64,000 nt of DNA from Longimicrobiales bacterium (GCA_965218295.1 CBDCKN010000003.1:320001-384000), one strand, 5' to 3'. Positions 23,830 through 63,795 are shown, counted from the stretch's first letter. Notes: generated from the letters alone by a model not told the origin. Translations and numbers: made by a program.

Positions 23830-24060
23830 GGACTAGAGGCCTGTTGAGGAAGTGGGGCGAGCCGCGTTAGGAGCGCCACGGGGCCAGACCCTAGGCGGCG
23901 CCCCGAAGGCATAGCAATAGCTACGTCGAGGGGCGCCAACAACGGGGGCACCGCGCGAAGCGTGGTCGGCCCCGTGCCGCCCTAACCGGGCACCGACAGG
24001 GCGCCAGCCCTGTTGGTCGGGCGAAGGGGGGTTGCGGGCCCATAGCGCGTCTCTCTTCCT

Positions 24061-42384: not shown

Positions 42385-42575
42385 TCCCCCCCTGGCTCGA
42401 GACCTTCGCAGCCGATCTTGTGGACTGTATCGAGCTGGGCCTCGAAGGGGACTGGAGCGCGACGGTCAGGACGGTCTGGTCCCGCGACCAGGGCTTTCTG
42501 GGTTTCGACGGCCCGGCGACCGAGCACACGGACTTCAGGCCCGCACTCGAGCTCTACTACTGTCACGTTGAGCAT
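42381..42575 (+). pseudogene. 5' fragment of a hypothetical gene fused to an attC half-site
   Basis: ATG overlaps the upstream stop; frame runs into the attC-family repeat and stops at 42611. Confidence 0.4.
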
Positions 42576-42640
42576 CGCGCTCGCGCGCTGCGCACGCGGT
42601 CGGCATCTTGATCGCGCACTAGAATCGCGAGCCGTTAGAA
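42572..42640 (+). repeat. attC-like site, right half only (R' GTTAGAA)
   Basis: 37 bp identical to 63734-63770; aligns with 52196-52241; ends AGAATCGCGAGCCGTTAG. Confidence 0.7.
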
Positions 42641-46081: not shown

Positions 46082-46363
46082 GTGATCAAGAGCTTCAAGG
46101 ATCGAGACGCCGAGCGGCTCTTCCATCGTAGGCCGGTCAGGCGGCTGGGCACCGATGTCCAGCGTACCGCCCTTCGGAAGCTCCGCATGCTCGACGCTGC
46201 GACGACGCTCGATGACCTACGCATACCCCCGGCGAACCGACTGGAAAAGCTGAAGGGGGACCGAGCGGGGCAGCATAGCATCCGCGTCAACCGACGGTGG
46301 CGGATCTGCTTTCGGTGGCGTTCGAGCGACGCGCACGACGTTGAGATTGTCGATTACCATTGA
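46082..46363 (+). CDS. higB: HigB toxin (RelE/ParE superfamily)
   Basis: MIKSFKD, PPANRLEKLKGDRAGQHSIRVNRRWRICFRW, VEIVDYH. Confidence 0.93.
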   Translation: MIKSFKDRDAERLFHRRPVRRLGTDVQRTALRKLRMLDAATTLDDLRIPPANRLEKLKGDRAGQHSIRVNRRWRICFRWRSSDAHDVEIVDYH

Positions 46364-46372
46364 GGGAATGCC

Positions 46373-46684
46373 ATGGCCACGACGACGCTAACGCCAATCC
46401 ACCCTGGTGAGGTCCTGCTTGAGGAGTTTCTCGAGCCTATGGGCATCAGCCAGTATCGTTTGGCGAAGGACATCAGTGTATCTCCACGCCGCATCAATGA
46501 GATCGTGCATGGCAAGCGCGCCGTGACGGCCGACACGGCACTCCGGTTATCCCGATACTTCGGAACGTCGGACAAGTTCTGGCTCAATCTCCAGACGGGT
46601 TATGATCTCGATGTCGAACGCGATCGGCTTGGAGACCGACTGGAAGCCGAGGTCCTACCCCGCGCTGCTCGGGATCAACTTTGA
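46373..46684 (+). CDS. higA: HigA antitoxin; last codons replaced by the IS30 end
   Basis: PIHPGEVLLEEFL, RRINEIVHGKRAVTADTALRL, FWLNLQ; original end VLPRAV-TAA lies at 52163-52170. Confidence 0.93.
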   Translation: MATTTLTPIHPGEVLLEEFLEPMGISQYRLAKDISVSPRRINEIVHGKRAVTADTALRLSRYFGTSDKFWLNLQTGYDLDVERDRLGDRLEAEVLPRAARDQL

Positions 46685-52164: not shown

Positions 52165-52242
52165 GTATAACAAGCGATTGCTGCAGTCGCGGTAGGCATC
52201 AGGGTCGCGCGCTTCGCTTGCGGTCACCATTGTTGTCGCGCA
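52165..52242 (+). repeat. attC of the higBA cassette, left part
   Basis: GTATAAC AAGCGATTGCTGCAGTCGCG...; pairs with 58970-58993 to give an imperfect palindrome of about 100 bp. Confidence 0.8.
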
Positions 52243-52646
52243 CCTATAAAGCGGACCCGGTCAATAGGACGCACGCCACCTAGGGCCTGCGCGAGCAGGC
52301 CATCGTAGGTGTTCTTCAGATCCTTCAGCATCCCCAAGTCTCCTGCGGCGTGATGTTGAGAAGTGGTTGGATCACGCGACCGATCGAAGGCGAGTCTTGT
52401 CAGGGACTCGAGCACCTATTCGGGGTTCGGCCTCTGTAGCGTGGCACGTCCCATCCCTCTCTGCCAACTTACGTGAGACACAGAGCAGCTAAGGAATTAG
52501 AGTAGGGCGAAGGCAGAGAAACCGAGGATGCTGAGACACCGAGAGAGAATGAAAGAGAATGGAATAGCCCCACCCCTCTCTGCCAACTTACGTGAGACAC
52601 GGAGCAGCTAAGGAATTAGAGTAGGGCGAAGGCAGAGAAACCGAGG

Positions 52647-55487: not shown

Positions 55488-55621
55488 TTGATTTCCAAGA
55501 GTGTCTCACTGGCGTTGACAGGTTCCGCATGATCTCCTGTGCGAGGTGGGGGGCTCAGTCAGCAGAAGAAGGTCGTCGAACGACATGCGCGACCAGGAGC
55601 TCACCCCGTGGATCCTGAACC

Positions 55622-56169
55622 TCAAGCGACATGGCGCCACGCCTCACCTGTGCGAAGCATCGCGTGCACCGCACGAGCGAGCTTGCGTGCGGTGGCGATG
55701 CGAGCGACACGCCAATCGAGCCGATCCTTGAGCCGGTCGTAGTACTGGCTGAGCCAGCTATCGGGAGATCGGCCATGATGGATGACGACGGTCTGGACGA
55801 AGGCATTACGGAGCCAGCGGTTGGCACCGGCCGGGATCGGCCCGTAGCGGACGGTCATCCCGGAACGAGAGGAACGAGGAGCGAGTCCTGCATAGCTCAC
55901 GAGGTGCTTCGGGCCTCGGAAGCGCTCGATCGGCAGGGTCTCGGTGGCGATCAAGAGGGCGCGGTAGGGTCCGATGCCGGGAACCGTGCGAAGGAGTTCG
56001 ACGGCCGGGATCTCGCGGCCGACCTCGAGGATGCGACGGTCGAGCGACTTGATCATGTCCTTGAGTTCGTCTGCGATGCGCTCATGCGTGCAGATGAGTC
56101 GTTGCTGCTCGGGCCCCATGCGGGGCCAGGCGATGGTATGGACCCAGCCACGTCCCTCGGCGGTGAGCA
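55622..56169 (-). pseudogene. C-terminal half of the IS110 recombinase
   Basis: Near-identical to the 3' half of 57859..58878. Confidence 0.85.
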
Positions 56170-56346
56170 CCTATAAAGCGGACCCGGTCAATAGGACGCA
56201 CGCCACCTAGGGCCTGCGCGAGCAGGCCATCGTAGGTGTTCCTCAGATCCTTCAGCATCCCCAAGTCTCCTGCGGCGTGATGTTGAGAAGTGGTTGGATC
56301 ACGCGACCGATCGAAGGCGAGTCTTGTCAGGGACTCGAGCACCTAT

Positions 56347-57724
56347 GAGGTTGGGTCAATAGGTGTGTAAACGTATTAGGCGGCGTTCTTCCGCTGTTGG
56401 TGTGAGACGGGCTTTCCGTCTTCGAACTTTCTTCCTTCAAATACGTCCTTGAGGAGGTGAGGAGCGTCGAGCCTTCGGAACCGCTTCTCAGCCACCAAGA
56501 GCAACTTCCAGATTAGCGCCGTAGCGCTCTCGACCCGCTTGAACCGCTTCGCTGCTGTCGTCCTGAGCCGTACCGCAGCGAACGGGCTCTCGACCACGTT
56601 CGTCGTGCGTAGATGCTTCCAGTGGTCCTCGGGGAAGTCGTAGAACGCTACCATCCGCTCCCAGTCGTCCTCGAGTACGTCCACTGCTTTCGGATACCAC
56701 GGCCTATAGCGTCGGGCGAACACCTCGCGGGCCTTCAGGGCCTCGGCCCGGCTCGGTGCGTAGACCACGGCCCGGAGAAGATCCTTCGCCTCGCCCTGCT
56801 CCCGCTGAGGTAGTCGGTCCAGCACGTTCCTCATCTTGTGGTTCCAGCACCGTTGCTCGCCCGCCTCAGGCCATACCTGCCGTACTGCGCCCCAGATCGC
56901 CGCGTTGCCGTCCGCCATCAAAAGCCGGGGCGCCTCGATGCCGCGTGCCTTCAGATCCCGCAACACCTCCGACCAGGACTCGACCGACTCTCGGTAGCCC
57001 GATCTCAGGGCCAACACCTCCTTCGTCCCGTCTCGCATCGCGCCCAGCACCACCAGTAGCGCCGCCTTGTCCCGCTCGAGCCCTGCCTTCACGTAGATCC
57101 CGTCCGCCCATACGTAGACGACCTCACGGCCCTCCAGGCGACGCTGGCTCCATTCCTCGAACTCCGCCGTCCATCCCGCCCGCAGTCTCCGAATCGAAGA
57201 CTTCGACAGCGGTGCCCCCTCGCCTAGCAGTCCCCGCATCGCCAGCTCGAAGTCTCCCTCTGCCAGTCCGTGCAGATACAGCTCCGGAAGCAGAGCGCCC
57301 AGCTCCTTCGTCCGCCTCGCGAACAACGGCAGCACCCGACTCTCGAACCGCTCCTCGACGCCCCGAACCCGAGGGCGTCGGAGTGTGATCGTGCCCGAGC
57401 TCATCGCCAGCCGCCTCGGCTTGCCGTATCCGTTGCGGTAGCCCTCGGTCGCGTCCACCACCCTCCTGCGCTCTGACTTCTCTCGCCCTAGCAACTCCGT
57501 GACTTCCTCCTCCAAGATCTGTTGAATGAACTCCTGCGCCTTCTCCCGAACCACTTCTTCCAGAACTTCCCACACGGGCGTCCTGGACTCACCCTCGGGT
57601 CCCACCGTATTCTTCCTCACGAGGCGTCGTTCCTTTCCCCCGGGCTGTCACCCGGAGTTCGCTGGTTATTACTCAGCGGAAAGGTACGTCGCCTCTCTTT
57701 TTACACACCCTTTGATCCTAGCTC
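56347..57724 (-). mobile_element. IS256-family element, copy 2 (1378 bp)
   Basis: Same TIRs as copy 1; 8-bp TSD GCACCTAT. Confidence 0.93.
56376..57620 (-). CDS. IS256 family transposase
   Basis: Two amino-acid differences from 24090..25334. Confidence 0.93.
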   Translation of the reverse strand: MRKNTVGPEGESRTPVWEVLEEVVREKAQEFIQQILEEEVTELLGREKSERRRVVDATEGYRNGYGKPRRLAMSSGTITLRRPRVRGVEERFESRVLPLFARRTKELGALLPELYLHGLAEGDFELAMRGLLGEGAPLSKSSIRRLRAGWTAEFEEWSQRRLEGREVVYVWADGIYVKAGLERDKAALLVVLGAMRDGTKEVLALRSGYRESVESWSEVLRDLKARGIEAPRLLMADGNAAIWGAVRQVWPEAGEQRCWNHKMRNVLDRLPQREQGEAKDLLRAVVYAPSRAEALKAREVFARRYRPWYPKAVDVLEDDWERMVAFYDFPEDHWKHLRTTNVVESPFAAVRLRTTAAKRFKRVESATALIWKLLLVAEKRFRRLDAPHLLKDVFEGRKFEDGKPVSHQQRKNAA

Positions 57725-57858
57725 GCACCTATTCGGGGTTCGGCCTCTGTAGCGTGGCACGTCCCATGATCTCCTGTGTGAGGTGGGGGGCTCAGTCAGC
57801 AGAAGAAGGTCGTCGAACGACATGCGCGACCAGGAGCTCACCCCGTGGATCCTGAACC

Positions 57859-58878
57859 TCAAGCGACATGGCGCCACGCCTCACCTGTGCGAAGCATCGC
57901 GTGCACCGCACGAGCGAGCTTGCGTGCGGTGGCGATGCGAGCGACACGCCAATCGAGCCGATCCTTGAGCCGGTCGTAGTACTGGCTGAGCCAGCTATCG
58001 GGAGATCGGCCATGATGGATGACGACGGTCTGGACGAAGGCATTACGGAGCCAGCGGTTGGCACCGGCCGGGATCGGCCCGTAGCGGACGGTCATCCCGG
58101 AACGAGAGGAACGAGGAGCGAGTCCTGCATAGCTCACGAGGTGCTTCGGGCCTCGGAAGCGCTCGATCGGCAGGGTCTCGGTGGCGATCAAGAGGGCGCG
58201 GTAGGGTCCGATGCCGGGAACCGTGCGAAGGAGTTCGACGGCCGGGATCTCGCGGCCGACCTCGAGGATGCGACGGTCGAGCGACTTGATCATGTCCTTG
58301 AGTTCGTCTGCGATGCGCTCATGCGTGCAGATGAGTCGTTGCTGCTCGGGCCCCATGCGGGGCCAGGCGATGGTATGGACCCAGCTACGTCCCTCGGCGG
58401 TGAGCAACCGACCGCGGGGCAGGCAGAAGCCCAGAGAGTGGAGCTCGGCATGAATGCGCGACGCCGAGGAGGTCCGCATCCGGACGAGTCGGGCCCGGTG
58501 CCGGACGAGGGTGGCCTGCTCGCGTTGGCTGATGGGTTTGCAGTAGACCTCAGGGATGAGGCGCACGAGTTGCATGCGAGCGAGCAGCGTGGCGTCGATC
58601 GCATCGTTCTTGTAGTTGGCCTCGGCGATCGCACGCAGCTTCTTCGCGTGGGCGAGCACGAAGCGACAATCCGGTCCGTTGAGCAACTCGTATAGCCAGG
58701 GCCAGGACGGACTCGTCTCGACGACGACCTCGAGCGGCCGATAGGCATTCAGCAGCTCAACGAGCCGGTCGGACTCGGTGTTGCGGATGCGGAGCGGCTT
58801 TTGGACGAACGCTCCGTCATTGCTCACGACCGCGACGACGAGGTACGTTGCGTGAGCATCGATTCCTGCGACATACAT
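57859..58878 (-). CDS. IS110 family DEDD recombinase (IS1111 type)
   Basis: AGIDAH, VVET, KNDAIDA, LRTVPGIG, SYAGLAPRSSRSG, ATARKLAR; GGAGG RBS. Confidence 0.92.
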   Translation of the reverse strand: MYVAGIDAHATYLVVAVVSNDGAFVQKPLRIRNTESDRLVELLNAYRPLEVVVETSPSWPWLYELLNGPDCRFVLAHAKKLRAIAEANYKNDAIDATLLARMQLVRLIPEVYCKPISQREQATLVRHRARLVRMRTSSASRIHAELHSLGFCLPRGRLLTAEGRSWVHTIAWPRMGPEQQRLICTHERIADELKDMIKSLDRRILEVGREIPAVELLRTVPGIGPYRALLIATETLPIERFRGPKHLVSYAGLAPRSSRSGMTVRYGPIPAGANRWLRNAFVQTVVIHHGRSPDSWLSQYYDRLKDRLDWRVARIATARKLARAVHAMLRTGEAWRHVA

Positions 58879-58969
58879 GATGGCCTCCTGGTGGTTGGCA
58901 GCCGCAGGTTACTTGGGGAAGTGCCAGCGTAGTGCGCCGGCCGTTGGGAGGCCATCCGCTTTATAAGGT

Positions 58970-58993
58970 CAGCAGAATCGCGAGACGTTAGGA
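58970..58993 (+). repeat. attC of the higBA cassette, right part (L' and R' GTTAGGA)
   Basis: CAGCAGAATCGCGAGACGTTAGGA is complementary to the left arm at 52165-52190. Confidence 0.8.
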
Positions 58994-59027: not shown

Positions 59028-60254
59028 GTGAAGAAGTTGCGGAGCAGAAACCCGTGGGGATTTAGGGTCGCCTTCTGGGCTTGCCTGACGCTTGTGGCAT
59101 GCGCCCCGAGTGGCGAACCGGACCGAAGGGGTGGTGACGATGCCAACCAAGCAGCGGCGTATGGGCACCCGGATAGCGTACTCTTCTGGACCCCGGAGCA
59201 GCAGCTCGCCGGGTTCCCGAACTACGACCGAATCTTCGAAACCCGAGCGATTCCGGCCGGCTCTGACCCCTTTCCGCTCCCTCGGCGGTTGCGAGATTTT
59301 AGTGGGCTCAGCTACAAGGTCGAAGAAAGAAGCTACGATCTTGAGGCTTTCTTAGAGCATAATCGGGTCGCGGGTCTCCTCGTTCTCAAAGAAGGCTCGA
59401 TCGTCCTGGAGGAGTACCGACTCGGCCACAGACCTGAGACGCTGTGGGTCTCGTACTCGGTGGCGAAGTCCGTCGTTTCATTGCTCATAGGCGCCGCGAT
59501 CCGCGACGGCTACATCAACGGCATCGGCGAACCCGTTACGCAGTATCTCCCGGTCCTGCGCGGCACTTCATACGAGGGCGTGACGATCGGCCATGTCCTA
59601 CAGATGGCCTCGGGCGTGGAGTGGAACGAGGACTACACTGATCCCACCGCCGACGTCAGCCTCGAAATCGGCATGACCAACCAAGAGCGGCTGAGCTTTC
59701 TGAGCAGCAAGAAGCGCCTAGTCGACCCAGGTGTTCGCTTCAACTACAACACCGGTGAGACGCACCTCGCAGGAGCGGTACTGGGGGCCGCGATCGGAAA
59801 CCACCTGGCGACATACCTTGGCTCGAAGATCTGGCAGCCGTTCGGTATGGAGCACGACGCCAACTGGAGGCTCGTTGAGCCGGGAGGCGCGGAGCACGGC
59901 GGTTGCTGCATCAGCGCGACGCTCCGTGACTACGGCCGACTCGGCATGTTTGCACTTCGAGCGGGTACACTACGCAATGGCGACCAGACCCTCCCTCCGG
60001 GCTGGATGGACGCGTCCAAGGCCCCGTCCGCAGGGAATCCAGGCTATGGCTACCTCTGGTGGCTCGGCGACGGTCAGTCGTACGCGGCAAGAGGAATCTT
60101 CGGGCAAGGGATCTTCATCGATCCCTCGGACAACGTCGTGATCGTCACGCACAGCGCGTGGCCCGTCCCGACCGGGACGGAGTTCTCAGCGCACAGAGAC
60201 GCACTGGTCGCTGCGCTGAAACAAACCCTGAATGAGACGGGGGCCGACGAGTAG
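59028..60254 (+). CDS. Serine hydrolase, beta-lactamase/NylB-like family, probable lipoprotein; gene cassette
   Basis: SVAK (SxxK), LQMASG, FNYNTG, DYGRLG, YGYLWW, ARGIFGQ; LVAC lipobox. Confidence 0.88.
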   Translation: MKKLRSRNPWGFRVAFWACLTLVACAPSGEPDRRGGDDANQAAAYGHPDSVLFWTPEQQLAGFPNYDRIFETRAIPAGSDPFPLPRRLRDFSGLSYKVEERSYDLEAFLEHNRVAGLLVLKEGSIVLEEYRLGHRPETLWVSYSVAKSVVSLLIGAAIRDGYINGIGEPVTQYLPVLRGTSYEGVTIGHVLQMASGVEWNEDYTDPTADVSLEIGMTNQERLSFLSSKKRLVDPGVRFNYNTGETHLAGAVLGAAIGNHLATYLGSKIWQPFGMEHDANWRLVEPGGAEHGGCCISATLRDYGRLGMFALRAGTLRNGDQTLPPGWMDASKAPSAGNPGYGYLWWLGDGQSYAARGIFGQGIFIDPSDNVVIVTHSAWPVPTGTEFSAHRDALVAALKQTLNETGADE

Positions 60255-63733: not shown

Positions 63734-63795
63734 GCGCTCGCGCGCTGCGCACGCGGTCGGCATCTTGATCAGGCAGCAGAATCGTGAGACGTTAG
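63734..63795 (+). repeat. attC-like site, right half
   Basis: ...GCAGCAGAATCGTGAGACGTTAG; 37 bp identical to 42577-42613. Confidence 0.75.

Follow-up and report, generated by a model that had tools for sequence, protein, structure and literature searches.

An IS1111-type element at the L' box of attC in a Longimicrobiales bacterium and the predicted RNA that likely guides its recombinase

The window, by which we mean the whole stretch of DNA analysed (64,000 nucleotides from a Longimicrobiales bacterium, GCA_965218295.1, CBDCKN010000003.1:320001-384000), carries an IS1111-type element at the inner edge of the L' box of an attC site, and a guide RNA predicted downstream of its recombinase gene likely steers the enzyme by base pairing, a reading to which we give a probability of about 90%. 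The initial annotation had already proposed an IS1111-type, RNA-guided recombinase programmed against an attC family, and this proposal draws support from the covariation of target guides and targets, a covarying RNA fold, the attC architecture of the insertion site, and the attC sites found beside the integron integrase of a relative.

Organization of the element and its copies

The features of the locus, counted from the first nucleotide of the window, are as follows.

52165-52242, plus strand: 5' part of the target attC, with R'' GTATAAC (52165), a 5-bp spacer, L'' ATTGCTGC with an extrahelical G, and the central region
52241-52454, minus strand: right end of a truncated copy, at a true target junction (core 52241-42), with a pile of IS30-end and IS3 pieces between there and 55524
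55524-56169, minus strand: truncated second copy, with the 3' half of tnp (aa 158-339) and the target loop
56168-56169, plus strand: CA where the right end of copy 2 meets the middle of tnp in the truncated copy
56170-56346, minus strand: remaining part of the non-coding end together with the right end, including a hairpin (56336-19), a stem partner (56312-09), a -35 box TTGACC (56191-86) and the subterminal repeat (56182-73)
56347-57724, minus strand: IS256 (NF033543; 8-bp duplication; second copy at 24060) that splits the RNA gene and cuts the donor guide off from the rest of the donor module
57726-57732, minus strand: left donor guide, repeated at 56346-56340 as part of the IS256 target-site duplication
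57767-57772, minus strand: AGATCA, a candidate right donor guide or, more likely, the 5' strand of a stem closing the donor multi-loop
57785-57844, minus strand: target-binding loop, with an outer stem (57844-34 / 57793-85) and an inner hairpin (57821-09); covarying pairs in 29 homologues
57797-57804, minus strand: left target guide (bottom-strand match), ending in the TG core; covariation
57823-57832, minus strand: right target guide (top-strand complement), the core complement plus 7-8 nt; covariation
57859-58878, minus strand: intact IS110/IS1111 recombinase gene, 339 aa (PF01548 and PF02371; NF033542 200 bits, cut-off 140)
58879-58971, minus strand: left end, with the TG core (58971-70), a 7-bp extension, the 10-bp subterminal repeat (58964-58955) and a ribosome-binding site (58889-58884)
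58972-58993, plus strand: 3' part of the target attC, with L' GCAGAAT (58972-78), an 8-bp spacer and R' GTTAGGA (58987-93)

Both junction strings on which the initial annotation was built, GTCGCG-CA-CCTATA at 52241 and TATAAGGT-CA-GCAGAATCG at 58970, were located in the window, as were TTCTGCTG at 57804-57797 and ATAGGTG at 57732-57726 on the tnp strand. The two junctions belong, nonetheless, to two nested copies inside a pile of insertion sequences and not to one. Copy 2 (56170-58971) keeps its enzyme gene intact and has the IS256 (56347-57724) just 3' of its donor guide; at the CA of 56168-69, its right end runs into the middle of tnp in the truncated copy 1 (52243-52454 plus 55524-56169) and not into target DNA. 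Copy 1 is itself split by the IS30-end and IS3 pieces, and its uninterrupted form occurs in the public contigs X2 and X5. Four copies are present in the genome, namely the two in the window, an intact one of 1414 bp (C9:433064-434477) and a 5' half on C2. The C9 copy is 99.6% identical and shows the same two types of junction as the window. Copy 2 in the window retains the enzyme and target loop, its continuous donor module having been lost to IS256, and the C9 copy is complete; the window copy could still make the enzyme and a target-only RNA, and a full donor module would need the C9 copy.

Several further observations concern the locus itself. The CA inside tnp is a breakpoint in two rearranged copies, at 56168-56169 of the window (right end joined) and at C2:63497 (attC left half joined), the latter junction being also present in the public contigs X1. 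These breaks are possibly one-ended recombinase events, with microhomology as an alternative for C2. One-ended donor transfer is described for another IS110 element in the part of a preprint devoted to it (10.1101/2025.10.25.684509), and the right end of copy 2 at the internal CA of 56168 would, by analogy, resemble such a transfer. At 57779, in a near-invariant RNA scaffold motif, copy 2 has a T where C9, copy 1 and the contigs of X1 and X4 have a C, which is either a private mutation or an assembly error. Between 44450 and 64000, copies of IS3, IS30, IS256, IS481 and a second type of IS110 are densely piled on a decayed cassette array, whose remnants include attC halves (42555-42639 and 63738-63795) and a toxin-antitoxin-like gene pair (46082-46684); one IS481 of the pile has some twenty copies across the genome. 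This suggests an expansion of insertion sequences together with an integron integrase that was lost or not assembled. The cassette-like gene that follows R' (59028-60254) encodes a serine hydrolase with a beta-lactamase fold (PF00144), far under any named beta-lactamase cut-off.

Recombinase and family assignment

In an alignment of 37 homologous sequences, the residues D7, E54, D92, D95, and S260 are invariant, and they align with catalytic residues in IS621 and ISCro4; these two were the sole matches in a comparison with PDB sequences. The enzyme has both the DEDD RuvC-like domain and the Tnp domain with catalytic serine that are features of the IS110 superfamily. Moreover, the ends carry a perfect subterminal repeat of 10 bp, set 7 bp inside the left end and 3 bp inside the right end. 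The relevant passages of Siddiquee et al. 2024 (PMC11187229) give as the IS1111 rule subterminal inverted repeats of usually 11-13 bp, with a 7-bp left and a 3-bp right extension, and hence the 7+3 geometry is that of IS1111 with a repeat of 10 bp. Two other IS1111 features are the larger non-coding region downstream of tnp (about 305 nt, vs about 94 nt upstream) and the order of the guides, with the top-strand complement (57830-23) before the bottom-strand match (57804-797), as reported for IS1111 seekRNAs in the same passages.

The enzyme is about 27% identical to TnpEc11 of ISEc11, and none of the plasmid records exceeds 35% identity to it. Our tree includes only three plasmid IS110-family proteins, on a long branch and with 24-27% identity. 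An ISKpn4-type element was sought in six plasmid loci, and since all six proved to be other IS110 members, ISKpn4 is absent from the tree. Three loci came from a metagenome search, and six distant ones from a viral search. Among distant relatives from archaea and Armatimonadota (L064, L068, L079, L080, and L084; 27-33% identity), the long non-coding end lies upstream in several cases, and the TG core and subterminal repeats are as in the window element.

The core dinucleotide and the attC target

Only CA, which is TG on the tnp strand, is common to the left and right junctions, so that the core is the 2-nt TG, as first proposed, and the GCA core offered as an alternative reading is excluded. 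In all 35 homologues, left target guides and donor guides end in TG, though at the element ends themselves the TG is partly there by construction, as the end-finding motif contains it.

When the outer flanks of the two copies are rejoined, a textbook attC of 100 bp results, in which the core directly precedes L'. Sites of this kind are built as R''-5 bp-L'' with an extrahelical base, followed by a central region and L'-spacer-R'. Here, besides this box architecture, the site lies after and before cassette genes, and IntI is found in the lineage; the element stands antisense to the cassettes. The same attC family has an empty site on C1 and about ten decayed sites dispersed over the genome. No integron integrase exceeded the TIGR02249 cut-off in this genome (90.7% complete), and a search of it with a relative's IntI returned a generic tyrosine recombinase only. 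An integron integrase over the cut-off was present in all five related genomes tested, and of the four flanking regions with clear matches, three (L119, L125, and L127) have attC arrays. In fact, two attC sites beside the integrase of L127 match both target guides without a mismatch over 15 nt.

The cassette arrays of L119, L125, and L127 lie downstream of the integrase gene and on its strand, an inverted integrase arrangement, and the attC sites of L125 measure about 175 bp. At C9:270330-270397, where the element is absent, an attC-family half stops exactly at the CA core and is followed by unrelated sequence. The left flank of the C2 copy is not attC, yet the left guide matches it for exactly 8 nt. 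This flank (C2:64143-64170) is a terminator-like hairpin with a T run, a natural off-target site.

Target guides

The left target guide at 57804-57797, recognised from the outset, tracks its own flanks across homologues and is unpaired in the consensus fold. The right-hand guides had at first been left without a confident assignment, which now holds for the donor side only, where the candidate shows no covariation with the donor; the right target guide is assigned to 57830-57823 (GTCGCGCA), 5' of the left guide across a small hairpin, and matches the C9 site over 10 nt. Another stretch considered as right target guide, TCGCACAG at 57782-75, was rejected as a near-invariant scaffold motif. When the 285-nt non-coding end was shuffled 20,000 times by dinucleotides, the 8-mer of the left target guide arose 161 times and the 7-mer of the left donor guide 99 times, and both together never.

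To follow the guides through the family, we started from 66 locus rows with at least 45% identity. Removal of 13 duplicates left 53, among which a right end could be recognised in 35; nearly all are from Gemmatimonadota records. Guides were read from the alignment columns of these 35 homologous non-coding ends. The right guide agreed with its own right flank at 5.88 of 7 positions, against 2.62 for non-cognate flanks (34 of 35 RNAs usable), and the left guide at 4.36 of 5, against 1.66 (25 of 35 usable). Because kin are not independent, the test was repeated on collapsed, distinct guides, with means of 5.67 vs 1.96 on the right (n=15) and 4.08 vs 1.33 on the left (n=13). For neither guide did any of 20,000 permutations reach the observed agreement. 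The homologue alignment that had been suggested as a check on guide-target covariation has thus come out in favour of both guides, and covariation of the left and right target guides with the target (LTG and RTG) is what is expected of bridge RNAs. Agreement falls off after +7 and -5, which places the working guide lengths at about 5 nt on the left and 7 nt on the right. The misfits are L048 (0/7), L030 (2/7, guide deleted), and L018 and L055 (4/7 each) for the right guide, and L042 (2/5) for the left.

Fold of the predicted RNA

It had been stipulated that matches falling in stems would speak against guides. In a consensus calculated with RNAalifold on 29 of the 35 sequences, all guides are unpaired, and the fold covaries: in the 26-pair model, 93% of cells are paired and 12 of the 26 pairs show two-sided changes, a result that none of 500 shuffles gave, while the same model slid along the alignment leaves 27-47% paired. 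As counter-evidence, the two target guides pair partly with each other when the C9 end is folded as a single sequence. A second hairpin near the right end, containing TCGCGCAG, is not conserved in homologues and is not a guide. Inspection for handshake pairing, between the base after each right guide and the opposite DNA, gave no consistent pattern, and the C9 non-coding end had no match in Rfam at E values up to 1. In L006:2563-3110 (identical to L059), a relative's right end is joined right after its own left target guide, with the 3' part of the RNA gene duplicated, an apparent insertion into the element's own guide-encoding DNA.

Donor guides and junction promoter

The left donor guide proposed at 57732-57726 lies within the IS256 target-site duplication (56339-46 / 57725-32), so that its match to the donor could have been a by-product of that duplication. 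We rejected this origin, as the guide is native: both 52419-13 and C9 carry it, and 34 of 35 homologues have it with no more than one change. Just before the core, the donor base and its counterpart in the guide (n=35) are G/G in 21 cases, A/A in 12 that form one group, C/C in the distant L052, and C/G in L026; hence, as expected of the left donor guide (LDG) of a bridge RNA, 34 of 35 agree at the variable position, with one exception. On the tree, these amount to about two independent coupled changes, and support for the donor guide is therefore moderate. Besides L026 (donor C, guide G), the misfits are L022/L028 and L058, whose donor guides are altered.

As for a right donor guide, AGATCA is complementary to the commonest donor. 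It stays fixed, however, while donor positions +2 to +4 vary, and 8 of 26 are mismatched at +2, the window element among them. A complement to the GATC of this motif occurs 4-8 nt past the last hairpin in 26 of 29 sequences, against 5% in shuffles, and both sides are changed in L048, so that a stem closing the multi-loop is the better reading of AGATCA. Multi-branch donor loops are noted for IS1111 orthologues in the pertinent section of PMC11208160.

The right donor pattern fits a circle-junction promoter. TTGAC stands at a fixed distance in all 35 right ends, and across the junction, 17 bp further downstream, GAnnnT is present in 26 of 26, its last T having belonged to the end-finding motif; from these boxes, promoter activity is predicted. 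No end-to-end circle junction was found in the contigs of four public runs, where contigs drop rare forms.

Proposed mechanism and alternative explanations

With IS621 as the model (relevant parts of PMC11208158), the element would work as follows. Circle formation would bring together the right end's -35 box and the left end's GAnnnT -10 box and turn on tnp and the RNA, as extrapolated from IS621 and ISEc11/ISKpn4, and RNA and enzyme would then form a complex. The target loop would pair with both strands around TG, by about 5 nt on the left and 7 nt on the right, and the left donor guide would pair with the element's own right end within the multi-branch loop. The DEDD and serine sites would then exchange strands at the core, the target bases not being duplicated.

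The serious alternative concerns the donor side. The RNA might pick the target only, as a seekRNA, with the protein recognising the ends via the subterminal repeats and the donor-like 7-mer being a conserved scaffold element or relic that stays unpaired in the reaction. For ISEc11, a short target-only seekRNA was enough for movement, according to the corresponding part of PMC11187229; further, no right donor guide covaries, its candidate having a better-supported stem partner, and donor-guide mismatches are tolerated by L026 and L022/L028. We still consider this reading doubtful, since the donor guide changes with the donor both in the 12 members of the A/A group and in L052, a distant relative (C/C), terminates in the core in all 35 homologues, and is unpaired in the consensus, and since an IS110 element needed the full RNA for circle formation and LD-side transfer in the section of the preprint concerned (10.1101/2025.10.25.684509).

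Two further explanations are far less probable. That the protein recognises the folded, single-stranded attC hairpin by its structure, guide matches being secondary, would agree with the attC-associated subclade, in which the position relative to R' is kept while the sequence changes. It is nevertheless very improbable, as relatives use three attC positions (the inner edge of L', inside L', and 36 bp before L') and in each case match the site with their own guides; below 60% identity, none of 15 relatives lies near an R' box and their guides still match their flanks; and the C2 flank is no attC. The least credible of all, with next to no probability in our estimate, is that the matches arose by chance or from a repeat-rich assembly. 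The region is indeed a pile of IS3, IS30, IS256, and IS481 copies, and no contig of the four public runs spans the stretch. Against this reading, which the homologue series already contradicts, stand 0 of 20,000 in shuffles and permutations, an intact C9 copy, and an architecture that recurs in 35 loci from many genomes.

Comparison with known systems and evolution

RNA-guided targeting of attC has already been published for ISKpn4, ISPst6, and ISPa25 (Siddiquee et al. 2024, pertinent part of PMC11187229), and targets of the IS1111-attC group (ISKpn4, ISPst6, ISPa21, and ISPa25) are listed in Table 1 of PMC13604230, with further material in portions of PMC3001079. The window element shares with these four a downstream non-coding region, 7+3 subterminal repeats, an enzyme of about 340 aa, a top-strand complement before the bottom-strand match, and attC insertion antisense to the cassettes. 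In contrast, their published insertions lie towards the 5' end of attC (target GGCTTGAA*CGAATTGTTAG, R''/L'' arm, bottom strand), whereas the window lineage enters the 3' arm at its L' box, with TG as the core, and does not share the R''/L'' position. Thus, being attC-targeting on the other arm, it works like the IS1111-attC elements and lacks one defining feature of the group. Its enzyme also appears distant, with at most 35% identity to plasmid records and 27% to TnpEc11. Given that ISKpn4 is absent from the tree, an independent origin is likely, not proven.

Resemblance to IS621 and ISCro4, as described in parts of Durrant et al. 2024 (PMC11208160) and Hiraizumi et al. 2024 (PMC11208158), extends to the DEDD and serine sites, a 2-nt core in each guide, separate target and donor modules, and the junction promoter. 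The window RNA differs in lying downstream of tnp and in its reversed guide order; its donor guide, moreover, sits in a predicted multi-branch loop, and its right donor guide and handshake bases are not identifiable. The natural reprogramming pair ISEc11/ISXne4 (likewise treated in part of PMC11187229) is similar in its close enzymes, conserved RNA stems, and swapped guides and targets, but here the series comprises at least 15 distinct right guides, and several of these are retargeted to different attC families without a change of position.

In the tree, built without five rows that contain stops, the attC-associated elements make up a supported subclade that is nested within relatives using other targets, and attC targeting is seen only inside this one Gemmatimonadota subclade. 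Of the 24 left flanks with at least 60% identity, 10 have an R' box at 12-16 nt from the core, and of the 15 below that value none has one. L014, L016, and L017 (74-79%) and L022, L028, and L055 (66-68%) occupy the same place in other attC families with rewritten guides; a 65-67% group uses the attC family of the window element 3 bp further into L'; and L026 is inserted 36 bp before L'. On balance, we lean towards a Gemmatimonadota IS1111-type lineage that acquired attC homing independently of the proteobacterial group, on the opposite arm, and whose guides have been repeatedly rewritten beside L' while the donor guide co-evolved with the element end. Under this somewhat favoured reading, that co-evolution would make the RNAs true bridge RNAs, with three and possibly four guides, instead of target-only seekRNAs, the right donor side having been freed to serve as a -10 box. 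While the principle, attC targeting included, is known, the lineage and the landing arm are new; literature on IS110/IS1111 with attC, bridge RNA or Gemmatimonads, with subscription journals mostly outside its coverage, contained no description of the lineage.

For the family, these elements provide a natural reprogramming series with readable guides, useful for setting guide lengths around a TG core, as well as comparative evidence on whether IS1111-type RNAs read their own donor end, and they add another candidate bridge recombinase with a TG core, sharing only about 27% identity with ISEc11. For the integrons that they enter, they represent a likely second origin of attC homing, and, with the site split next to L', cassette excision would be blocked.
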